A stretch of 64,000 nucleotides of DNA, taken from NCBI GenBank assembly GCA_012401045.1, contig GCA_012401045.1_4704.1. One strand, written 5' to 3'. The notes under the pieces were generated by a model. The model worked only from the letters and a program-made list of their open reading frames with translations, was not told where the DNA came from and did not search any database. A program made the position numbers and the translations under genes. Shown here piece after piece: positions 1-48,903 of this stretch. Numbering within the stretch: position 1 is the first letter of the stretch; the number at the start of each line of letters is the position of its first letter. This DNA is from a phage.

Positions 1-1674
1 GTAACGCATTGCCCAGCCGGTTTGTTCCCAGCTACCAGACAGAACACGATCGATGATTTCGTGACGAGCGACAACACGCTGAGACATCGTCATATCGGTA
101 CGGTCGAAGCTGTCTTCCCAAGCTTCTACGGTATCCGGGTTAGTGATGTTCATCATGTACAGATCGTCCATATCACGAATATCGTGACGGTGACCATCCT
201 GGTGGTTGTAGTGACCCAGCGGGATACGGTTACCGGTAGCGTAGACCAGCGGTTGGCCGTATTGATATTTCTTGCTGAAGCAACCCAGGGTAACATCATC
301 GAACGCACGGAAGAGGGCTTTGTAACCTTCGGAGATTTCACGGACTTCACCTTCAACTTTGCCCGTATAGATCTTCTCAGCCGCCGGGATCATACGCAGC
401 AGCCAGCTGTACTCACCTTCTTCCGGTACGTCGATAGAAATCAGCAGAGACGGATACAGTACCTGTTGCAGGAACTTGTAAATCTGCTCGTTGGTTTGAG
501 TAGACAGATCCAGCGGTGCGGTAACTTCCGGATCCAGTACCATCGCCAGAGCACCCGGGTTATGCGGACCAATACCACGGGCAGCGTTGCTGATTAAAGA
601 CTGTGCCCACGCCATACCGCTGTTCAGCGTAGCGATGGTGCCAATCAGACCCAACACGAAAGTGTTCGGTGTGAACGCATCCAGCTCCAGCGGGTAAGCG
701 CTGGTCATCACGTAACGCGGCTGGTATTGTACAGTCGGCGGTACCGGATAACCGTTAACCAGAACAGGGCCTTGGTTGAAGGTCGGGTTCTGCGGGCTGT
801 AAGTCAGGTCAATGTAACCGGTGGTGGCGACCAGACGCTGTTGACTATCGTAATCGCTCATCGCTTGACGGATGCGGTTAGAGATAGTTACAGTGATGTC
901 AGAACGCACAGGGTTACCAACAATATCGCTGTCCTGCATACCGCTGGTGTTGTACTGAACGCTGCTGATTGGCTGATCGCTTGCCATCATGCCCAGGTTG
1001 AACTGCGGCAGACCCAGTTTATCACCGAGACGGATTTCGATCGCGGTTTGGATTGCGTTATCTGCAGCAGACAGCAGGGTGGTTGCCAGATGCGCAGATT
1101 CAGCGGTGATTTCATTGGTCACCACAGCCAGACCAGCGATACGAACAGTACCGTTAGACTTACCGCCAATAGCTGAGTACATTGCCGCCATGACTTCGTT
1201 GATGAACGTACCGTTCAGGTTATCAACCCAGGTACGCGGTACCAGAATGTTACCATGCGGACCTTGTTCTTCACGACGCGGCAGCGGAGCCAGACCAGCA
1301 ACCAGCGGAAGCACATAACCAAAGAAGTGGTTATGGTCACCAACTTTTGCACCACTCATAACGACCAGGGTCGGATACGGTACGCTGTACTGGTTCGGGT
1401 CAACCGCAACAAAGATGAAGTCGTTTTTGAACTGGGTATCTTCCAGATATTTCTCCATCAGACGACGGAGATTCAGTACCTGCTCGGAGCCAGTATTACG
1501 GCTAATACGACGGCTCAGTGTACGGTTGATCGTACGCATCGTATGAGTTACTTTAGGCTGGCCAGCAAAATCTGCAGCGGTTTCCAGCGCCTCATCAGCA
1601 CGTTGTGCGGTGCGGGTTTCAGCTGCACGAATTTCTACATTATCGTTACCGTTATTACGTACGTCTAAGCCCAT
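1..1674 (-). CDS. Abundant early protein, truncated at window edge (558 codons in window); candidate phage-nucleus shell protein (chimallin-like) or major capsid protein
   Basis: Open minus-strand frame from ATG 1674..1672 (MGLDVRNNGNDNVEIRAAETRTAQ...) running off position 1; SD AGAGGAA 8 nt upstream; strong high-expression codon bias (CGT/CTG/GGT); early-type promoter motif at 1744-1774. Not in ORF track because no stop in window. Confidence 0.6.
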   Translation of the reverse strand, partial: MGLDVRNNGNDNVEIRAAETRTAQRADEALETAADFAGQPKVTHTMRTINRTLSRRISRNTGSEQVLNLRRLMEKYLEDTQFKNDFIFVAVDPNQYSVPYPTLVVMSGAKVGDHNHFFGYVLPLVAGLAPLPRREEQGPHGNILVPRTWVDNLNGTFINEVMAAMYSAIGGKSNGTVRIAGLAVVTNEITAESAHLATTLLSAADNAIQTAIEIRLGDKLGLPQFNLGMMASDQPISSVQYNTSGMQDSDIVGNPVRSDITVTISNRIRQAMSDYDSQQRLVATTGYIDLTYSPQNPTFNQGPVLVNGYPVPPTVQYQPRYVMTSAYPLELDAFTPNTFVLGLIGTIATLNSGMAWAQSLISNAARGIGPHNPGALAMVLDPEVTAPLDLSTQTNEQIYKFLQQVLYPSLLISIDVPEEGEYSWLLRMIPAAEKIYTGKVEGEVREISEGYKALFRAFDDVTLGCFSKKYQYGQPLVYATGNRIPLGHYNHQDGHRHDIRDMDDLYMMNITNPDTVEAWEDSFDRTDMTMSQRVVARHEIIDRVLSGSWEQTGWAMRY

Positions 1675-1743
1675 TTGGGATTCCTCTTTTCTTAAACTTT
1701 ATTAAATGACGTCATTGAATCAGCTTCTACTCGCTCATTCACC

Positions 1744-1774
1744 TAGGTAATATAACCCTGAAATTTTTTTCAAT
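1744..1774 (-). promoter_or_regulatory. Early-type promoter candidate (minus orientation: TATTG-AAAAAAA-N8-TATATTACCTA) for the 1-1674 gene
   Basis: Plus strand reads TAGGTAATATAACCCTGAAATTTTTTTCAAT; same motif recurs at 30707-30738, 53412-53443 and (variant) 16405-16434; TATATTAC matches the phiKZ early promoter consensus as I recall it. Confidence 0.55.
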
Positions 1775-1928
1775 ATTGGTGTAACCACATTGAACGATAT
1801 AAACCCCTAGGCGAACGCTGCCGAGAAGCAACATTCTTTCTACATATAATCAGGATATGTCTGTAAACTTTTACTTCTCTTATTGAGAGTAAAGTCATAT
1901 CCGTTTACTACCTTCTTACGGAGTTCGT

Positions 1929-8333: not shown

Positions 8334-8928
8334 CTGTTAGCTCCTGGGGACGTTCAACAATCGCGCCAGACGGGCAGATATTGATCGTAATGTTAATTGA
8401 CGGCATCGCCATCACTCGAGGATTACTATTACGTACGCGGACAACATGTTCGGTTGCTGATTTACGATCGACGCAATACTCTGTTTCTTGGAACTCAAAT
8501 GCTTTTAACGGCGTTGGTTTTGTTTGACGTTTAGGAACGCGGCCAAGATCAACAATATAGGCATAATCGCACACACGTTCTATTCCGTAAATACGGTTAT
8601 CCGACCAGTTCTTACCAAACAGCTTGTTGTGATGATAAGACAAATATTCGGTTACCATACCCTGGACAACATCGAAATCTTCTCGAAATTCAGGTTGGTA
8701 CCAAATCGGGCCGAGAATATCTGCGAACGATTCATGACGATATCGAGGATCATGTCGAGTCCAGGTCATTCTCTGGTTAAGATCGAAATCCACCAACAAC
8801 TCGGTTAATTGCAATTTTTCCTTCGGAGAAAGCTGGCGTTGATGATGCAAACTCAGACAATCGATAAGCGGTAATGAAACCCACGATGCTAATGTGTACA
8901 AATCGATCCTGGCTAATCTCTTGGTCAT
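7951..8928 (-). CDS. Hypothetical protein (325 aa in this frame; last 40 aa doubtful)
   Basis: SD AGGAAAAG upstream of ATG 8928; C-terminal RPRRHRHTKSRTG tract suggests frame exit near 8080. Confidence 0.5.
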   Translation of the reverse strand: MTKRLARIDLYTLASWVSLPLIDCLSLHHQRQLSPKEKLQLTELLVDFDLNQRMTWTRHDPRYRHESFADILGPIWYQPEFREDFDVVQGMVTEYLSYHHNKLFGKNWSDNRIYGIERVCDYAYIVDLGRVPKRQTKPTPLKAFEFQETEYCVDRKSATEHVVRVRNSNPRVMAMPSINITINICPSGAIVERPQELTDEQFEWLGQLEELRLAHAKRKAEQLANEPVYIKQGLALKERFKQRRSVFGPVQPVLYEFGVPEYRMDAESVATAFLDNGEIHRQGARSSGPFRPVRVQRPRRHRHTKSRTGNDDVSRDMDRSHYRTY

Positions 8929-8983
8929 ACTCTTTTCCTAAGTCCCCATTGTTTATACACACGATATCTGGGAATAGTTAAAA

Positions 8984-8999
8984 TATACGGCGTAAAACG
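8984..8999 (-). promoter_or_regulatory. Variant late-type motif (minus orientation TTTTACGCCGTATA) upstream of 7951..8928 gene
   Basis: Plus strand TATACGGCGTAAAACG; one mismatch from ACGGCATAAAA family. Confidence 0.35.
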
Positions 9000-9019
9000 A
9001 AGCAGGAGAGTTTCTGACG

Positions 9020-9340
9020 TCATTTTCTCCCTCTTCGAATACTACCGATACCTCTTTCGTCTAAGACGTCCCAGGCACGCTTTATTTCATCCTCCGTTGC
9101 TCTGGTATCTGGAGGGACAACCATAACACAGTCGTGGAACGGCCAATGTGTAGGTCTGGGGTTAGCGAACAAATCATCCCATTCAAATGTCCATTCTTTC
9201 TTTGAGCGATTGTAGTAGAGTGTAAGGTACGTGTTGGTATACGCCGGATAACCGCGCATAACTTCAATATCCTTACGATCTTGCCGTTCCTGATTCCAAT
9301 CGTTAAACCGCTTTCTTATTTTCTCCCACCACTTTCCCAT
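9020..9340 (-). CDS. Hypothetical protein (106 aa)
   Basis: ORF; SD AGGAGAAAGC immediately upstream of ATG 9340, directly preceded by the TTTTATGCCGT motif. Confidence 0.6.
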   Translation of the reverse strand: MGKWWEKIRKRFNDWNQERQDRKDIEVMRGYPAYTNTYLTLYYNRSKKEWTFEWDDLFANPRPTHWPFHDCVMVVPPDTRATEDEIKRAWDVLDERGIGSIRRGRK

Positions 9341-9352
9341 GCTTTCTCCTAC

Positions 9353-9384
9353 ACGGCATAAAAGCCTGCCCCGAAGGACAGGCT
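9353..9384 (-). promoter_or_regulatory. Hairpin + TTTTATGCCGT late-type promoter/terminator candidate
   Basis: Plus strand ACGGCATAAAAG + agcctg/caggct stem; 12 nt upstream of gene start 9340. Confidence 0.5.
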
Positions 9385-9393
9385 CGATAGAAC

Positions 9394-9594
9394 TTAACGA
9401 CCATCCAATTTCAATGAAGGATGGTTGACGATATGTGCGTGTTTTGCTGGGTCATATAGCTGATATGGAAAATAGCCATGCCATTGACGGCCTTGGCATT
9501 TCGTACACAGGAACTGACCAACACCTTGTCGATTCTCGTAAGCGAGTTCGGTACTATCAACATGACCGCAACGTTCGCAGATAAACAGCGACAT
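9394..9594 (-). CDS. Small zinc-ribbon-like protein (66 aa)
   Basis: CERCGH ... CTKCQG paired Cys motifs; SD GGGGA upstream. Confidence 0.55.
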   Translation of the reverse strand: MSLFICERCGHVDSTELAYENRQGVGQFLCTKCQGRQWHGYFPYQLYDPAKHAHIVNHPSLKLDGR

Positions 9595-9631
9595 AGCGCA
9601 TCCCCATTCACTTGAACCTTTTGGTTCGGCA

Positions 9632-10612
9632 TTAGAAAAGCAAGAAACCGCTATTCTTCGCTTCCGCTACAGTTTCGTCACCAACTTTCGGTGCCTGTTG
9701 ACGCGCGTTACGATGTTCGATGTAACGTTTCGCTTCGTCAGCGATTTGTTTGATAATACCCCCTAAACGATCGGTACTTAAAACAAACGACGTCGCTTCA
9801 CGAATTGGGCTGCTTTCAGGCACAAAACCATCGCAGCTGTAAATAGCGCTAACGCCCATGACTTTTGTCGCGTCTTTCGGATAAAGCGTACAGAAAGCAA
9901 TCGGGCTATCGTTCTCTTTCGTCCAATCGTATCCCATGAACGTATTCAGTTCGGTGATCGTTGGTTCCAAACCGGTAACACGTGGATGGTTTAAGAAGTT
10001 TTCCAGGTCGGCGCTGTCAAGACGACGGTTCTCGCCAGAAAACAGAACACAAAGCTGGCTAATAACAACCTGCACGTCCAGGTTGACATCCTGCTCCGAT
10101 TTCCCATTTTCGCCATTCATGTGATAGCTAACAATCACTGGACGTTTCAACCCTTCTGCAGCCGCCATCAGTCCTTTGAAGGTGCGATCGGCGTTGATCG
10201 TTTGACGCTCATCATCGAACGAGGCAACGATGCAACACACCACACGTTCACCACGTTCCAGCAGGTTAGCAACCAACGCAGGACCTGCAACAGAACCTGA
10301 ACCACCGCTCAGACTAAAGACCACGATATTAAATTTACCTGGCGTATGCTTATTCAGAATACCCGGGATTTGTGAACAGATCAGTTCAGCGTTCTCATCA
10401 CGCTTCTTACCAGAACCGTCTAACTCACGACCGGCTGCATCTTTAAAGATGTAAATATGATCGTCACCCAGTGTGCTATCGCGTAGGTTAGCGCGGCTGG
10501 TATCGACATACGTCATGCTGTGTAATCCTTTCGCGACTTCGCCTTCAAATGCTGAGCCGATTTCGCCACCACAACCACCGACAGCCCAAATATGTACTTG
10601 GTTCTCTTGCAT
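9632..10612 (-). CDS. phuZ: Tubulin/FtsZ-like GTPase, PhuZ homolog (326 aa)
   Basis: N-terminal WAVGGCGGEIG (T1-like) and FNIVVFSLSGGSGSVAGP (tubulin signature loop), aligning by eye with my recollection of 201phi2-1 PhuZ (FYIVCYSLGGGSGSVLGP, QIP motif); SD AGGAG 7 nt upstream. Confidence 0.88.
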   Translation of the reverse strand: MQENQVHIWAVGGCGGEIGSAFEGEVAKGLHSMTYVDTSRANLRDSTLGDDHIYIFKDAAGRELDGSGKKRDENAELICSQIPGILNKHTPGKFNIVVFSLSGGSGSVAGPALVANLLERGERVVCCIVASFDDERQTINADRTFKGLMAAAEGLKRPVIVSYHMNGENGKSEQDVNLDVQVVISQLCVLFSGENRRLDSADLENFLNHPRVTGLEPTITELNTFMGYDWTKENDSPIAFCTLYPKDATKVMGVSAIYSCDGFVPESSPIREATSFVLSTDRLGGIIKQIADEAKRYIEHRNARQQAPKVGDETVAEAKNSGFLLF

Positions 10613-10676
10613 GTGAACTCCTAACTTAATATGTATTTAACGTACAATGAATCTTTCTTTGCTAAAGGGGTGACCC

Positions 10677-11519
10677 ATGGGTGCTATTGACTACAGTGTA
10701 GATCGTATCTGTCGTACAATACCGGCAGATATCCTACAGTATTGCTATATCGATCGTTACGACTGGCGTAATCGCTATCCTCGTTCCGTAGAAGACATCA
10801 TTACCGATTGGGTAATCCGTAAACGGGTTATCGGCGACATCGATATCTACGGGGGACTACAAACCGTTATTCCCCTTGATGATGCAGGTGTCACAATCGA
10901 AGAAGTCACCATTAACTGTTATGTTTTCCACATTCCGTTGGAAGCCACACAGGGACGTTATATCACGTCCGCATTATCCATTATTTCAGGGAGCGTGAAC
11001 AACTACGGAATAAACTATAACGGGCAATGGGGCGCTTTCAACCAAACCCAATTTCAACGTCAGCTTTGTGGGTGGAACCCCGCAAGCAACACGTTACAGC
11101 AAGGGATGAACGCGTTCGGTCCCATGAACGTTCTTAGTACAGCCAACGTTGATATCATCGCCCCTAACACCATCATGGTGAACAACGTCACGCCTGTACA
11201 ATTTCCCCTGAGCCTACGCTGTTTCCTTGCCCACGATCCGGAACTTACCAACCTCAGCATGGAGGTTTGGAACGACTTCTACAAACTCTGTTTATACGCC
11301 ACGCAAAGTGACATCTACAACAGAACCGTTATCCGTCTCGATAGAGGTGTTACAGCACAAGGACAAGAAGTCGGTGCATTCAAGGAATACATCGATCGCT
11401 TTGCTGATGCTGAAAACACATATCAGGAATTCCTGAACGAAACGTGGGCAGGCGTTGCTGCCTGGAACGATCCGCAAACTAAACGTCGCGCCATTCGACT
11501 ACAAACCGGTTACTTCTGA
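10677..11519 (+). CDS. Hypothetical protein (280 aa)
   Basis: ORF divergent from phuZ; SD AAAGGGG. Confidence 0.65.
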   Translation: MGAIDYSVDRICRTIPADILQYCYIDRYDWRNRYPRSVEDIITDWVIRKRVIGDIDIYGGLQTVIPLDDAGVTIEEVTINCYVFHIPLEATQGRYITSALSIISGSVNNYGINYNGQWGAFNQTQFQRQLCGWNPASNTLQQGMNAFGPMNVLSTANVDIIAPNTIMVNNVTPVQFPLSLRCFLAHDPELTNLSMEVWNDFYKLCLYATQSDIYNRTVIRLDRGVTAQGQEVGAFKEYIDRFADAENTYQEFLNETWAGVAAWNDPQTKRRAIRLQTGYF

Positions 11520-40345: not shown

Positions 40346-41992
40346 TTAGGCTCCACGAGGTCCCGTTAAGTTGCGTAATAGGAACGCAACCGTATCGTAA
40401 CCAATATCGATGTTGAATTTATTTTTACCACTTACCCAGAAAGCTCGCTTCTTGTGCGAGTTGGTAATTTCGTCAATAGCTTCCATGGAATAAAGAACGT
40501 TAACCGAGACCGTATCACCATCAAAGTCCCCACCAAGTCCGGCGAGGTATGGCGCAGGGACAATAGTCGTTTCTACGAACGAAGCATTAGGTAACCAGTC
40601 GGGGTATTCCCATGCGATAAATCGTTCATCCGTTATTGGTTCCCAGTTACTATCCAGTTCGGTTTTCGGTTTTGCGGCGACGGTTGTACGTGCGTAACAG
40701 GTTAACGGGATAACGGATTGCATACCTGATACCGGATAACGTGTTACCATCGCAGCCAGGTTATTCCAGTACTTATATCCGGCAATATAGATAAGCTCGG
40801 TGTAAGTAATGGGGTGAACATCCGCGCCAGGTTTATTCAACATCTCCGGGGGTAATTCACTCATGCCACGGAATAACCGAAACGAATCGTTGTTCACATA
40901 GACGAGGCAAAGATATCGTCCATTGACCATGATAGGCTCGTTACGCACGCCAGGATCGCTTAAGGTGTTCAGTAAACGTTCTATTCCGTCCCATGTTGTA
41001 AAGTCATCGATGGTGTCTGGATCAAGCGTGACGCGCTCACGTTCCATCGTTTCGGTATCAGTAAGTTCAACTTCTGTAACATCACGGACAAATATTTCCT
41101 GCAAAATACCGGTACGTAACGCATGTTGCGTTACTGGGAGAGCGGCTTTACTCATCTGGTATAACCCTAACTGAACCGCGGTACAGGAAGGCTGGTTAGG
41201 CGACCCTAATACCTCCGTTGTGGGGTTAATTGCCGAAATAACGTTACGGGTTGAGTTCCAAACGCGACGTGAACCAAACTTACCTTGGAAGATCCCTTTC
41301 TTACCCTGGAACATATCCAACAGTAAAGCGTAGATATCGTTGAATGTTCTCTGTAAGCTCCAGCGCTGGCCGTCGTAAACGGGATCGGAATAATCTTTTA
41401 ATCCATCAGGGACGGTGTTAGAAATTGCAAGGAAACGACGATACAACTCCGTGATTTCTTGCTCGCTTTCATACCCACCTTCTTTTACTTCTATTTCACG
41501 TAAGCCTGCAGGCAATACCAGTAAGTGACGGGTCATCGCTTTGAACATGTTCTCTTCGACAACTTTAATTCGTAGCTCTCGTTGAGCTGAACCCGTTGAA
41601 ACGAACTTGATATCCGCGACGTGTTGTGCAAAGAACCCGTATCCTGTTTGTCCTGTTAATGCATCAGACGCAACGAAGTCGCGTTGTTCGGGATCCCACC
41701 GAGCGTACGCCTTCCCCGACATGATATCGCCATAGAGGTGTTTTAATCGAATGAGACGGTCGTAAATGACAGGATGCAGGATTTCAACCTTGCATTCAAT
41801 CACCGCAAATCGACGGTCTCGATCTTCACTACCCGCACTACCAAAGATGGTGTAAGAATAGAAACCATCATCGTGGAAATTACCGGTGCTTGGGTCACGA
41901 ATGCTCATGCTCGTGATCTTGGGGAGAAAACGTAACTGCTGTTTATCGAGGTGTAAAATACTAATATTAAACGGCTCTCTGACTTTAGCCAT
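40346..41992 (-). CDS. Multisubunit RNA polymerase beta-prime N-terminal-half homolog (about 548 aa)
   Basis: C-terminal GGDFDGDTVSVNV (beta-prime NADFDGD catalytic motif), GKKGIFQGKFGSRRVWNSTRNVISAINP (cf. LLGKRVDYSGRSVIVVGP), RRFAVIECKVEILHPVIY; start ATG 41992 with SD AAGAGGAG. Confidence 0.8.
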   Translation of the reverse strand: MAKVREPFNISILHLDKQQLRFLPKITSMSIRDPSTGNFHDDGFYSYTIFGSAGSEDRDRRFAVIECKVEILHPVIYDRLIRLKHLYGDIMSGKAYARWDPEQRDFVASDALTGQTGYGFFAQHVADIKFVSTGSAQRELRIKVVEENMFKAMTRHLLVLPAGLREIEVKEGGYESEQEITELYRRFLAISNTVPDGLKDYSDPVYDGQRWSLQRTFNDIYALLLDMFQGKKGIFQGKFGSRRVWNSTRNVISAINPTTEVLGSPNQPSCTAVQLGLYQMSKAALPVTQHALRTGILQEIFVRDVTEVELTDTETMERERVTLDPDTIDDFTTWDGIERLLNTLSDPGVRNEPIMVNGRYLCLVYVNNDSFRLFRGMSELPPEMLNKPGADVHPITYTELIYIAGYKYWNNLAAMVTRYPVSGMQSVIPLTCYARTTVAAKPKTELDSNWEPITDERFIAWEYPDWLPNASFVETTIVPAPYLAGLGGDFDGDTVSVNVLYSMEAIDEITNSHKKRAFWVSGKNKFNIDIGYDTVAFLLRNLTGPRGA

Positions 41993-42237
41993 GGAGACAC
42001 TCCTCTTTACCACCACCGGCTGCGGCGGTATCATCTGAACACACGAGAGACGTAATGGGTGATGGCGTCACCCATCGCTTCCTTGCTTGAGGCGAGGAAG
42101 TTATTAGGTTACGTACCTGCCTGATTTTATCAGGTGGGCGATGTGTGAAGTTACGCTTCAACATTATCAATGCCGAAGGTAAACTTCGTGCATCACGTTC
42201 CAACGTAACATGGGAACGTATCGAACTGGAGGTATAC

Positions 42238-45200
42238 ATGGTAGATAAAACCCGTGTTGAGGGTGATGATAATTGGGACAACTGGGATGAAGACTTCTCC
42301 CTGGATCTCGATTTTAACGAACCCAAAGACGATCGTAAACCGATAACACGCTTTGCGATAGGAGCGGTTAAAGGTGCTGCTGAGGATCTTACTTCCTACG
42401 AAAGAATGAAGGAGATCGCCAGAAACGCATTGCCTAAGGGCTACAGCGACGGTATGGATCTTATTGATTCCGCCGTCGGATCCACGAAGGAACTATACAA
42501 TGAAGCCGTTCGTGACGTTCTTCCTAAGGTCCAAAGCTCAAAACGGTTAGCCGCACAACTGACCAAGAAATACCGTGCGAGCATGCCCGATTTCTCGAAG
42601 AAAATTCTTGAGCAATGGGAGCGAGAAGCCAAGGAAGAAGACGAACGTAAACAAGCTGAAGAAACCCTTCGTCAACGCATGGCGAGCGCGGGGGACGATG
42701 AGATCGCCCGCAAGGTTGCCGAGGCATTAGGCGAATCAGCAAACCAAAGCGCGGATCAGTTCGCTGAACAGCAAGCGAAAGAGAGTATCCGTGACGATAT
42801 CGCTGACAAACGGTACGCTGTAACCAACAAACAAATGAGTGCGATGCAAGAAGGCGTCGCCAAGATGGTTGGTTTCAACAATGAATTCGCTGCACGCTAC
42901 ATGCGTAAAAGCCTGGAACTGAAATATCGTTCCTTAGCGATTCAACGTGCAAGTTTTGATCAGCATAAAAAGTTAGCCGAAGTCTATATCGGTTTATTAC
43001 AAAACATCCAGAAGAATACGGCTTTACCTGATGCGGCTAAAGCAAAAATGTCGGAAGAATTCCGCCGTAGCGCGTACCAACGTTTCTTTGGTAATGCGTT
43101 AGATGCGATGAGTTCTTTCGAGAACCGTTTCTTTGCCGATGTTAAGAAAAACCTTGCCACCAACGCATTAGGTGCTTTAAAAGGCGTCGTGTCTGGCGCA
43201 AACGATGCGTTATACGGTTTAAACGAAGCACGTGACTCGATATCCATGATGGATGGGATGGGGTCAGATGGCGATATTAAGGAAATGCAAGGAAAGATGT
43301 TGGGTCAGTTCATTGGCTCAACTGTCGCACCATGGATGGCTAATAAAGGCAGGATGGCGTTACGCGATTTAGCAAAACGTCACCCCAATGCTAAATTCGC
43401 TAGCGCGTTAAAAGCCGTGGATCAAGGTGGTGAGGCTGCCGCTTACACAACGCGTAATCTCGGTAAACTGCTCCAGGAAGATATTCGTAAGAACGAATTC
43501 AATCTTAGCGATCCGTTTTACAAGCAATTGTTACGCGGTGCAGGGCGTTGGGCGTTCAACATGGACAGCGGACGTAACTTCCGCGTGATGAACGACACCG
43601 CTGAAACACTGGCAGAGCAAACATCTTTCGACGGTTTAACCTACCGCAGCATCAACGAGGTTATTCCAGGCTTTCTTGCACGCATTCTGAAAAGCAGTGA
43701 AGGCATCCGCACCGGAAACAGCGATCCTGACTACGAGGTCTATGACGGCATCAGCGGGCAATTCGTGTCTCAGCGCACGCGTGAGCAAAGCGTCAACGAC
43801 ACGCTGTTTAACAAACGTTCATTTGGTTATTACGCCAGCCGTTTCAACGAGGTTATCTCGGTCATCGATCCCGATAAGCAATTATCGGAAAAAGCCAGGA
43901 AGGCACTGGCTAAACAGTTGGCACGAGATAGCGACGCGAACATCGCATTCGACCCGGCTCGTTTTACGGATGAAAGCAACTTCGATCGTAGTATCGACCG
44001 TGACGCTATTAAGGAACTTTCCACGTACTTTCGTGACCGTTACGGTATTCGTGACGATATCAACGATAAGGGGGAACGTCATCAGGTCATTGGAAACCGC
44101 GGGCAATATTACACGGAACGTAACCGAGCCGATCTTCGTTACGGTAATCTGAAATCTTTACAACCGGATATCCAGCGTAACCTTAACCTGCTGAAACGTA
44201 CTGGTGACGTCCAATATCTGGAACGGATCGGGATTGTAACGAGAAATAGCGACGGAAGTTACTCGGTTAATCACGATAGGTATTTCTCTGAAATCGATCG
44301 GTACATCGACCGGCCGGAGTACGCTGACCGCGGCGATGTTAATACGCGATTAACCGCTCAGGAAACAAGAGCGCTGGCGCTGGGTTATCGTGACGCAAAA
44401 CCATCAGCTGGTGACGTCCAAAATGTCGGCCTGCCGAACATCGGTCGTAAGGCTGCTGGAACAGTAACCGTTGATGAAAACATCGGCTACGATAAATGGT
44501 GGAACGACACAGGTGTTATCACCACATCGCTTGAAGAACAGAATCGAGCGTGGCAAGAGCTTTATCTCGAGGCGTTGTCCGAAGCATCCGAACAACGTGT
44601 TGAAATGCTTGCGCTGCTGAAAGCCATTTCTGAGAAAGACTGGTCTAATAACGTTTCGCTGGATGGTGAAGATGTACCTGAAGGTACAGCACCCATTTCA
44701 TTTATCGATCGTGCCAAACAAAAACTCGGCGGACGCAACCTGTTTAAAGGCGGCCGCAATCTCCTCTGGAAAGGAATTAAAAATACCGCACGTTTAGGTG
44801 TTAAAGGCGCACGCTGGGGTGCAGAACGCACGTTGGGTAGTTTGGTAAATTCTGGCCGACGCATTATCAATTTCAACCGCTTCGTGTTCGGCGCATTATC
44901 CAAGGTTGATCAGGTTCCGTTTGACATTTACGTTAAAGGGGAATCCCAACCACGCATATTGGTTGCTAAACTTCGTCAGGGGTTATACTTCGATGAAGCG
45001 ACAGGAAAAGCCGTAAAACGGATGAAGGATATCAAAGGCCCACTCGTTGATGCGGATGGAAACATCGTAATCAGCAACGAGGATATCGAGAAAGGGTTGG
45101 TCACTCGCGCTGGTCGTGCCTTTGAGAATTCAGGACTTAAAGCATGGGCACGTGAAGGTCTTAATGGAATAACGACGGCATTAAGTCTCCCACGGATGTT

Positions 45201-48200
45201 AAAACGCGGTGCGGTTGAGATCTACAAACAGCTTGACAAAACACCCGACGTTTACGTCAAGGGAGAATCAACGCCTCGTCTGTTGTCCATGGTGTTAGCA
45301 GCGGGTGGGTATTTCCGTCGCTCGGATGGACAAGTCATCAAAAATCTTGAAGACATCGATGGTGATGTTGTTGATGCACAAGGTAACGTCGTACTTACGC
45401 TTGCCGACATGCAGAAAGGACTTGTCGATAAATACGGTAAAGCGATTCGTCGTTTAAAAGAAAAGCTCATCAACTTCGGTGTAAAAGCTTTTACGTTACC
45501 GTTAACGTTGCTACGTAAGACAAAGGACATCCTTAAAGCCCTTCCAGGTAAAACCGTTAACGGTCTACGGCGGATGGGATTAAATTTCCAATCACCTGAC
45601 GCGTTACTGGTGGGAACAACGTCGAGCATGGTAGATCGCCTCGATGCTATTTACCAGCTTCTTGACCAGCGTATGCCGGGAGGTGATAAGGATTACCGCG
45701 ATTGGAATGGCGATGGTGTTCGAGAAGGATCGTTGGAAGACCTGAAACGTAAGCGTGAAGCCAAGGAAAACGGTAAGGATGACATCGGCAAAGATTCCAA
45801 TAAAGGAGAAGAAAAGGAGAAGAAACGAGGGTTACTCGGAAGCCTTTTCGATATGCTCGGTGATACCGCAATAGGTAAACGTCTCATGGCGAGTCCGCTT
45901 GGAAAAATTCTGGGTGGTCTTGGGGCGGTGTTAAGCGGCGGTGCGTCGTTAACTGGGTTGTTGGGCAAAGGTCTCATTAGAGGAACCGGCGCGCTGGTCA
46001 AGGGAGGACTAAGTGCGGCAGGATGGTTAGGACGTGGTGCGTTAATGGCGGGTGGGGCCGCGTTGAACGCCGTTGGTGGGTTATCGGGATTAGGTGCATT
46101 CCTCATCTCACCTGTTGGGCTTGCTATCGCTGGCGGTGCGTTGGCTGCTTATGCTGGATGGAAGATCTATCAGCATTTCGCCGAGAAGCCTGACCCGATG
46201 CAGAAGCTCCGTCTTATTGCATACGGTGCAAAAGGGGACGATAAAGACTTCAATAAGAAGCTGCTTGCGACAGAAACATACCTCACCGACCATGTGGTTA
46301 TGACCGGGGATACCATCGGATTCGATCCGAAAGCCGACTCGGAAAAGATTCTCGAAATCTGGGAATTGTCTCTGGAAGATTCCGACCGAATGAACGAATG
46401 GAAACGCTGGTATCTGCATCGTTTTATTCCTGTTTTCGCTCGCGCGTACAAACTCTGGAAAGAGCATATGCCGGACGAGAAGAAATACATGGAAATGGAT
46501 AAATATCCGAACGGTGAGAACAAAGTGAAATGGTCGGAAGCGTTTATCTGGCCTTCCGATAGTCCTGATGGTCCGTATTACGTCGAAGCTAACCCGTTGG
46601 GTTCTTCTGGTGCGACGCGTTATATTGCTGGTCAAGACGTCAAAACCTTGATGCTGAAACAACTCGAAGCCATCAAGAAAGAGTACCAGAATCAGATTAA
46701 GCAATACACTCATGATGAGGCTATTGCTGATTGGTCACGGATGTCTGACACACAACGTAAATCCGTTGCGCCTAACGCATTACGTGGTCAGAAAGCGTCA
46801 TTACGTTTTAACGATAAACGTTACAACAGCGCTGGTGCTAAAGGACGACAGAAACTGGATGCAACCGCGGTTATTGAAAGCGTAGACCGCCGTGGTAGGA
46901 AATGGGTTGCCGGTGGATACATCGATGAACTCACCAGTCTTCGTGTTCGTGCGTACGGTATTAAGGTTCCGTTGTTAAGTCAGATAAAAGTGCTGATGGA
47001 ACTTGAAGACGCTGTAGAACCTGGCGTTGTCGCTGAAGGTAAAGGTGTTAAATACGGTGGCGATCTTGTCGCGCTCTACAAGAAATTCGCGACGAAGTTC
47101 GGAAGAGACGTTAACAGCAAGCATGATCAGGATATCTGGTTTGCTTGGATGAACAACCGTTTCCTGCCCGTCTTTTTAACCTATTACCAACAAGTTAGCG
47201 ACATGGGCGGTCAAGGACTTCTGTCCGACGTGGTACAGAACCTGAAAGACAGCCAACGCTGGGAAATCGGTGAAGCACTTGTCGCAACGCAATACCGTGA
47301 TGAGAAAGGTACACTGCAGCCTGTATGGTCCTGGAATAGTTGTGGTTTCTCCGGTACTGAAGCTAACACCACCAGCAGTTCAACAAAGAGCCAACTCGAT
47401 CTGTTAAAAGAATATGCGGATAAAGAGAAGGTTCGTGAGAAGAACGCGGAAGCATCGCAAGAGGATACCGATAAATTATCGAAGATCCAAGAGCTGATGA
47501 TGAAGCAGGCTGGGTACGAGAAGAAAGACGGTGTCTGGCAGAAGAAATCTCGCATTACCGGCGGGATGAGTAACTCCGAAGCGAATTACAACCCCAATAG
47601 GAATAAGGTCGGTGAAAGCAGCTTTACGGCTTCGGCTACTTCCAATGCGGGATTAGGGTCAACCGGCGATCTTACCGGATTGCCTAACATGGGCTTACAG
47701 AAACCTGCAATGGGACCAGGTCCTGAAGCTGGACGTCGTGCGCTTGTTAAATCCGCTGTAAAACGCGGCATTACCGATCCGATGGAAATGGCGATGTTCC
47801 TTGCGAACATCGAACATGAATCGGGGAACTACACTCACGTACGTGAGGGGAACTATAAGACACCAGAGCGTCTTAAACAGGTCTTCCCTTACAAATTCCG
47901 TGATGTGCAGGATGCCGCACAGACGATCAGCATGGGTCCGGAAGTGGTATTCGAACGTGTGTATGGTAATCGTAAAGATCTCGGAAACACACAGAAAGGA
48001 GACGGGGCGAAGTATTTAGGACGTGGCTTCATTCAGGTTACCGGTAAAGCTAACTACGCTCGTCTGTCCAAGACCTTGAATAAGGATCTTGTCAGCGATC
48101 CGACCTACCTGGAAACGCCGGAAGGTGCAGCGGAAGGTAGTGTCGCATGGTGGCTCAACCGAGGTAACGTATTACGCGATCCCGCAAAACGGGGTGACGT

Positions 48201-48903
48201 ACGCCAAGTTCGTTATCTAGTTAACGGTGGCTATAACGGATTACGTGATGTTGAACAACGTTCTGCATATTGGATTCAGGCAGCTAAGAATGGCACCCTG
48301 AAGAAAATGATGGACGAGTTATCAGGGTCAACATCAGACGATCAAGCTGAAGGACCGACCACTGCCGAACAGGTGAAGAACGAAGCAGCACAAGAGGCAA
48401 ACGGAACACCTGCTGTAAGCAACGATCCGCAAGCCCCAGTATCTTCTACCACCCCTGAAGCTAAACCGTCTGCGGCTGCCGGGACGGCCCCAGCACCTGG
48501 GGAAGCATCACCAACGCCTGGAAGTTTCGAAACAGCAAAAGCCGCGGCAGGACAACCGACATCAACTCCAGCACCTAGCGATTTGCCGTCAAACCCAGGC
48601 GCAAATCGAGGGATATCGGTTCCGAATACACCTGCACAGGTTGCGCAGTCTGCGACACAAACGTCGGCTGCAAGTGAGAACTTCTACGGTAGCGCAGGTG
48701 AAATTCTCCGACAGCAGCTGACCACACAGCAGAACATCGAGAAGAACACCGGTAGAACGAATGAACTTATTTCGGAATTAATCCAAGCCGTTAAGGGTTC
48801 TTCTATCGGTAAGGGTTCTGCAAGTCCTTCTCAACAACAGACGATGTCACTACCTAATCGTCCGCAAGGAATCTCTCCAACACGGACAAGGTACGCACAG
48901 TAG
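42238..48903 (+). CDS. Giant virion-associated protein (about 2221 aa) with C-terminal-region GH19/lysozyme-like peptidoglycan hydrolase domain
   Basis: [10 protein letters not shown] ... [32 protein letters not shown] motif (GH19-type); Gly-zipper hydrophobic segment; internal ~109-aa tandem repeat; Pro/Ala/Ser/Thr-rich tail; start ATG 42238 with SD GGAGGT. Confidence 0.8.
   Translation: [2221 protein letters not shown]
44917..45570 (+). repeat. Internal tandem duplication (2 x about 109 codons) inside the giant gene
   Basis: [19 protein letters not shown]...[18 protein letters not shown] versus [18 protein letters not shown]...[18 protein letters not shown]. Confidence 0.6.

Follow-up and report, generated by a model that had tools for sequence, protein, structure and literature searches.

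The open reading frame at positions 9632-10612 of the window, as we call the whole 64-kb stretch of phage DNA analysed here, encodes PhuZ, a GTPase of the tubulin/FtsZ superfamily, in a chimallin-encoding, nucleus-forming Goslarvirus of Enterobacteriaceae. Its filaments are proposed to wrap and rotate the phage nucleus as a vortex-like array. We put the probability of this reading, the proposed mechanism included, at about 0.96. Features of the locus are collected in Table 1.

Table 1. Features of the PhuZ locus and the chimallin gene, in window positions
Feature	Position	Strand	Basis and remarks
PhuZ CDS, 326 aa + stop	9632..10612	minus	ATG start; ORF list, PHROG, PDB and Goslar gp234 match
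Shine-Dalgarno sequence, AGGAG	10618..10622	minus	5 nt 5' of the PhuZ ATG, read from the sequence
T1 nucleotide-binding loop WAVGGCGGEIG, residues 9-19	10556..10588	minus	G12, G13 invariant; G15 at least 90% conserved
T4 tubulin signature loop SLSGGSGSVAGP, residues 100-111	10280..10315	minus	G103 invariant; G104, G106, G110, P111 at least 90% conserved
T7-loop region RLDSADLENF, residues 197-206, with catalytic aspartates D199 and D202	9995..10024	minus	Both aspartates invariant
C-terminal tail APKVGDETVAEAKNSGFLLF, residues 307-326: short acidic cluster, then G-hydrophobic end motif	9635..9694	minus	G322 at least 90% conserved; tail survey
66-aa four-cysteine (2 x CxxC) zinc-ribbon-like ORF (Goslar gp235), 37 nt 3' of PhuZ	9394..9594	minus	ORF list; sub-cutoff Pfam matches
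Intrinsic terminator closing the PhuZ/small-ORF unit, GCCTGTCC-TTCG-GGGCAGGC, then TTTTAT	9364..9383	minus	Goslar annotation 180588-180607
280-aa DUF7484 gene (Goslar gp233), divergent from PhuZ	10677..11519	plus	PF24302, E 1.4e-87; phrog_3179
Chimallin (nuclear shell protein) gene, first 558 codons; 3' end beyond the window edge	1..1674	minus	PF25677; equals Goslar gp246, "nuclear shell protein"

Identity and fold of the protein

What the analysis itself shows is the identity and fold of the protein, its conserved residues for catalysis and nucleotide binding, the architecture of its tail and its place in the genome. An earlier note on this DNA had called the frame a tubulin-like PhuZ homolog and named a profile search and a structure prediction as checks. 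Both were run, and the identification as a PhuZ-type tubulin holds in the profile, in the PDB sequence matches and in the fold comparison. The PHROG 4733 profile, "tubulin PhuZ", matches over its full length (residues 1-323 of 326, E 2.9e-68). The Pfam model of the Tubulin/FtsZ GTPase domain, PF00091, matches below its 33-bit cutoff, at 29.9 bits (E 8.3e-7). Because PhuZ of phage 201phi2-1, the founding member, receives the same 29.9 bits, the low score is a limit of the model and normal for the family; the shortfall was dropped as an argument against membership.

A sequence search of the PDB returned 9pm9 and 9pmk at the top, with a single substitution (E 4e-220), and also the PhuZ proteins of phiKZ (3zbp, E 7.8e-29) and 201phi2-1 (3r4v, E 6.4e-15). 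Tblastn against phage genomes found Escherichia phage vB_EcoM_Goslar at 99.7% identity, where the gene is annotated "tubulin PhuZ" (gp234), and about 170 more jumbo phages at 25-33% identity to PhuZ. The PDB entry for 9pm9, released 2025-12-24, is entitled "PhuZ Tubulin from phage Goslar" (locally refined monomer). A literature search for a paper on 9pm9 or 9pmk returned none that was relevant, 9pm9 being cited only in an unrelated benchmarking preprint; in the papers on Avs5 and on the Goslar virion, PhuZ receives only a passing mention.

Residue conservation was read from a multiple alignment of 21 PhuZ sequences. The glycine-rich T1 loop and the T4 signature loop (GGxSGS) of the Tubulin/FtsZ GTPase domain are present, as are the T7-loop aspartates that complete the GTPase site of the neighbouring subunit. 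Residues G12, G13, D37, N42, G66, G68, G103, N140, D199, D202 and G262 are invariant across the alignment, and G322 is conserved in at least 90% of it. All four stretches singled out by the earlier note, WAVGGCGGEIG, SLSGGSGSVAGP, QIP and NSGFLLF, occur in the 326-residue frame. The likeness it had drawn between the QIP region and 201phi2-1 PhuZ is borne out by the alignment, in which QIP (residues 81-83) falls on RPQIPALM of 201phi2-1 PhuZ and on AHIPAIA of phiKZ PhuZ.

An AF2 model built on 23 homologues is confident except over the last 20 or so residues (pLDDT 87.4, pTM 0.86), and the GTPase fold is present in it. Foldseek against the PDB gave 9pm9 at TM 0.91, the phiKZ protofilament 3zbq at 0.82 and 201phi2-1 PhuZ (3r4v) at 0.80, with CetZ, TubZ and FtsZ between 0.5 and 0.7. 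The C-terminal (activation) domain of phage tubulins is present by fold, since it is covered by the structural alignments to 3zbq and 3r4v, which run over 311-315 columns. The Pfam model for that domain, PF22334 (TubZ_C_2), gives no match to the window protein at E up to 10; Goslar-clade relatives (P0002-P0004) reach 16-22 bits where the cutoff is 27, and 201phi2-1 and phiKZ score 139 and 128 bits. We read the C-terminal domain of the Goslar clade as divergent in sequence and not absent, its fold being kept in the model. PF22334 seems to under-cover the clade over PhuZ residues ~195-285.

The fold search also speaks to whether the protein might be a TubZ-type tubulin of DNA segregation, as in Bacillus plasmids and Clostridium phage c-st, and not a PhuZ associated with a nucleus. 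The superfamily fold is the same, TubZ of c-st and of B. thuringiensis appear among the fold matches at E 1e-11 to 1e-14, and the phiKZ protein itself was first named TubZ (PMC3678025). PhuZ structures are nevertheless far better matches (E 1e-23 to 1e-60, TM 0.80-0.91 against 0.58-0.66 for TubZ). The full-length PHROG match is to PhuZ, the gene lies in a chimallin-encoding genome with conserved PhuZ synteny, and its orthologue has been imaged around the phage nucleus. A segregation tubulin is thus exceedingly improbable, and the identification as PhuZ is retained below.

Phage lineage and gene neighbourhood

The whole window is collinear with positions 171225-237273 of the 237,307-bp Goslar genome at ~97-98% nucleotide identity; by its sequence, the source phage is a close relative of Goslar and not Goslar itself. 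The chimallin ORF matches PF25677, Chimallin_Phikzvirus, at 73 bits (E 1.9e-20, cutoff 27). RNA polymerase beta subunits (gp196, gp205, gp207), DNA polymerase, terminase and tail sheath were placed only through the 97-98% identity and collinearity with annotated Goslar, and the core genes of Chimalliviridae, including the multi-subunit RNA polymerases (split beta/beta-prime-like), were likewise found through Goslar collinearity alone. [quoted passage not shown] PhuZ alone is a poor marker of nucleus formation because about a third of nucleus-forming phages (chimalliviruses) are without it, and it is described as non-essential; chimallin in the window is the direct and better marker.

Rfam and tRNA scans of the whole 64-kb window found nothing. 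The window is without a 2,051-bp segment of Goslar (NC_048170 211748-213798), the corresponding site being window 40519-40527. In the Goslar annotation that segment contains a group I intron and the gene of gp206, a homing endonuclease of the HNH_3/NUMOD1 type. The order there is gp205 (a CDS of 502 aa, "RNA polymerase beta subunit"), intron and short exon; in place of these the window has one uninterrupted 562-aa ORF at 40346-42034 (minus strand), which the comparison identifies as an intron-less allele of the gene for a subunit of the virion RNA polymerase. An Rfam intron search of the whole window found none. The ORF at 42145-48903 (plus strand; 2,252 aa, GTG start) corresponds to Goslar gp204, for which the annotation gives a tail fiber or lysozyme-domain protein. 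The only stretch of the window with positive GC and AT skew, at 42-48 kb, coincides with this ORF, and the skew probably reflects the switch of coding strand.

The exact window PhuZ protein occurs on 488 public contigs of up to 259 kb, mostly labelled "hypothetical protein", in assemblies of Salmonella enterica, E. coli (O157) and Shigella. The longest of these contigs, like the Goslar genome, exceeds the 200 kb of a jumbo phage and so points indirectly to a jumbo genome for the source of the window. Megablast against complete E. coli genomes gave no match, and the Goslarvirus lineage seems to appear in draft assemblies, not in finished genomes. Published work has enlarged Goslarvirus from 1 genome to 237 through genomes lying within bacterial assemblies (PMC12768965), and the distribution over the 488 contigs fits this published carriage.

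The 66-aa ORF behind PhuZ is probably co-transcribed with it. Its Pfam matches to zinc ribbons are weak, all of them below cutoff. A consensus scan for promoters and terminators over 8900-10800 gave counts no higher than in shuffled sequence and missed the strong terminator hairpin annotated in Goslar; its output was set aside.

A metagenomic contig of 127 kb, from a relative at 56% identity, keeps the gene order and reads DUF7484, PhuZ, small ORF, DNA polymerase, chimallin. Its small ORF, directly 3' of PhuZ, is 57% identical (E 3e-24), and its DUF7484 gene has the same position and orientation at 71% identity. The small ORF likewise lies directly 3' of PhuZ in two Xanthomonas phages, LucasX and RTH11, where PhuZ is only ~33% identical to that of the window. 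In RTH11 (OQ790161.1) the homologue, at locus 1640-1867 (plus strand), is apparently unannotated; the next CDS, overlapping it in another frame, runs from 1783.

A further Xanthomonas phage, Xoo-sp14, keeps both the DUF7484 gene and the small ORF, while an unrelated 132-aa ORF occupies the PhuZ slot. The zinc-ribbon ORF as an obligate partner of PhuZ is weakened as a proposal, Xoo-sp14 having the ORF without PhuZ. The two may nonetheless be functionally linked.

Replacement of this kind, and the absence of PhuZ from about a third of nucleus-forming phages, where it is held to be non-essential, are also what would favour a decaying or non-functional copy in the window, PhuZ being dispensable and often lost in Chimalliviridae. 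The gene itself gives a different picture. Its frame is intact over the full length and preceded by a Shine-Dalgarno sequence, every invariant residue of the family is retained, the identical protein recurs on the 488 contigs, and PhuZ peptides were detected in Goslar preparations. Against the Goslar gene there are 19 nucleotide differences in 981, giving 18 synonymous codon changes and 1 nonsynonymous, a ratio of 18:1 that also argues against decay. We see virtually no chance that the copy is decaying. The codon changes indicate instead a real PhuZ gene under constraint (purifying selection).

The C-terminal tail across the family

The window protein ends in NSGFLLF (residues 320-326). The earlier note had taken this hydrophobic end as a departure from an acidic tail in the PhuZ of Pseudomonas phages, and as a hint of a different mode of filament contact. 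The first of these claims fails on comparison, since the proteins of 201phi2-1 (...IIDADDNVDEDGMVV, ending DEDGMVV), PhiPA3 (...IIDIDDNRTDDGFVV, ending TDDGFVV) and phiKZ (...LDVDDQATSSGLVFD, ending SSGLVFD) end hydrophobic too. A terminal Gly followed by hydrophobic residues is common to these three, to the PhuZ proteins of RAY (...GDQGDDNGMFL) and EL (...GSNDLGFML), and to the window protein (...KVGDETVAEAKNSGFLLF). The extended tail layout of long helix, acidic cluster and terminal Gly plus hydrophobic residues is present in the window protein, as read from its residues. AF2 confidence is low in the tail (pLDDT 47-68), as expected of a segment that orders only in the filament, for which phiKZ is the precedent.

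A profile search of 1.84 billion representative proteins gave 935 matches at E up to 1e-30, and the tails of 170 representatives were scored. Gly with at least two hydrophobic residues falls within the last seven positions in 156 of the 170. The other 14 also end hydrophobic, in triplets such as LVL, MVL and IVL, and across all 170 the last three residues are L, V, I, M or F in 96% of cases. Over the last 20 residues the family mean is 3.5 acidic residues and a net charge of -1.5. At 3 acidic residues and a net charge of -1, the window tail lies on the family median (48% of representatives have net -1 or higher); the 201phi2-1 tail, with 6 and net -5, is the family extreme.

These figures weigh on the proposal that a Goslar-type PhuZ uses a different filament-contact mode through a hydrophobic, non-acidic C-terminus, which might underlie a vortex as against a spindle. 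What speaks for it is that the acidic cluster of the window tail is indeed weaker than that of 201phi2-1, that the conserved Gly is preceded by K-N-S where 201phi2-1 has D-E-D, that the C-terminal domain of the Goslar clade escapes Pfam TubZ_C_2, and that the determinant of vortex versus spindle is stated as unknown in PMC12908238. The hydrophobic end is nevertheless universal, from DGMVV in 201phi2-1, DGFVV in PhiPA3 and SGLVFD in phiKZ to the surveyed representatives, and in tail charge it is 201phi2-1 that is the outlying case. The tails of phiKZ and 201phi2-1 PhuZ pack on the adjacent subunit at the same site (Aylett et al. 2013, PMC3678025), and phiKZ does so with T-S-S, and no acidic residue, before its Gly. 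A different contact mode read from the tail is thus refuted by the comparison across the family, and as an account of Goslar-type PhuZ we hold it to be very unlikely. Because the end is near-universal in the survey, and because phiKZ makes the same contact without acidic residues before the Gly, the survey indicates that the hydrophobic end is a signature of the PhuZ family and no clue to a different mode of contact.

Filament behaviour and relation to known PhuZ systems

The Goslar protein is gp201 of Birkholz et al. 2022 (HOV27_gp234, YP_009820885.1; PDB 9pm9, 9pmk). It shares 325 of 326 residues with the window protein, including every catalytic and tail residue, and the two genes agree in neighbours, orientation and terminator. 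The proteins differ by one conservative substitution, the window having D229 where Goslar has E229; this residue belongs to a C-terminal-domain loop that is not conserved. The genomes are ~2-3% diverged, the window being without one Goslar intron and its HNH endonuclease.

Three further systems are more distant. PhuZ/TubZ of phiKZ (gp39; 3zbp, 3zbq) has the same fold (TM 0.82 over 311 columns), the same T1, T4 and T7 residues and a tail built alike, with a helix, an acidic cluster and hydrophobic residues after a final Gly (...LDVDDQATSSGLVFD), but is ~27% identical, matches TubZ_C_2 at 128 bits where the window protein has no match, and forms a bipolar spindle that centres the nucleus. PhuZ of 201phi2-1 (gp59; 3r4v, 3j5v) is alike in fold, in the QIP helix, in a T4 loop of GGGSGSV and in its terminal Gly and hydrophobic residues (...DEDGMVV). 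It is ~23-27% identical, has an "acidic knuckle" far more acidic than the window tail (6 acidic residues and net -5 against 3 and -1), and builds a three-stranded filament and a spindle that centres the nucleus. The PhuZ of Erwinia phage RAY (gp210) shares the family and the tail motif (...GDDNGMFL) at ~27% identity, but is reported to form five-stranded tubes, with a nucleus that rarely rotates (PMC12908238). Since RAY forms such tubes, filament architecture varies within the PhuZ family despite similar tails.

What is said here of filament formation, the vortex, rotation and the D202A phenotype comes from literature on the Goslar protein. GFP-PhuZ of Goslar surrounds the phage nucleus with a vortex-like array that extends to the membrane (Birkholz et al., PMC9891218), and the vortex rotates the nucleus, which does not lie at midcell (PMC9891218). 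PhuZ(D202A) is hydrolysis-defective and dominant-negative (PMC9891218); it abolishes the vortex and lowers rotation from 92-97% to 29% of nuclei, leaving the position of the nucleus unchanged (PMC9891218). GTP-dependent dynamic filaments around the nucleus, published for a protein one residue off, may by analogy be expected of the window protein. That PhuZ spindles centre the nucleus, as the earlier note had it, is true of the Pseudomonas phages and not of the Goslar lineage, in which a vortex rotates a nucleus lying off midcell (PMC9891218).

In the mechanism we propose, GTP-bound PhuZ monomers would polymerise head to tail, the T7 loop of each subunit supplying D199 and D202 to complete the GTPase site of its neighbour. 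The C-terminal tail, with its long helix, short acidic cluster and Gly plus hydrophobic end, would pack along the neighbouring subunit and stabilise the filament, a contact suggested by homology to phiKZ and 201phi2-1 PhuZ. Dynamic filaments would then form a vortex-like array wrapped around the phage nucleus, push on the cell envelope and rotate the nucleus, and this rotation probably spreads capsids over the surface of the nucleus for DNA packaging. Filaments of the Goslar type would not centre the nucleus.

We also considered whether a Goslar-clade feature at this locus helps to set a vortex as against a bipolar centring spindle, either the divergent C-terminal domain together with the weakly acidic, Phe-rich PhuZ tail, or the 66-aa zinc-ribbon protein as a regulator or anchor of filaments. 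The tail is disfavoured as a vortex determinant because it is typical of the family, and a dedicated partnership of the zinc-ribbon ORF with PhuZ is weakened because the ORF persists in a phage that lost PhuZ. We give such a local determinant a slim chance.

The identification made here is correct. The protein had been characterised before and its phage lineage is known; as a finding, the identification is ordinary and already known. It carries little weight as a discovery: but for one conservative substitution the protein is Goslar PhuZ, which has been published, imaged and solved in structure, and the lineage has already been described in enterobacterial assemblies. For those assemblies, the "hypothetical protein" found in hundreds from Salmonella, E. 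coli and Shigella is safely the PhuZ of a contaminating or carried Goslarvirus. For the family, the view of the tail is corrected: PhuZ tails run from an acidic stretch into a conserved end of Gly and hydrophobic residues, and the strongly acidic "knuckle" of 201phi2-1 is the extreme case, not the typical one.
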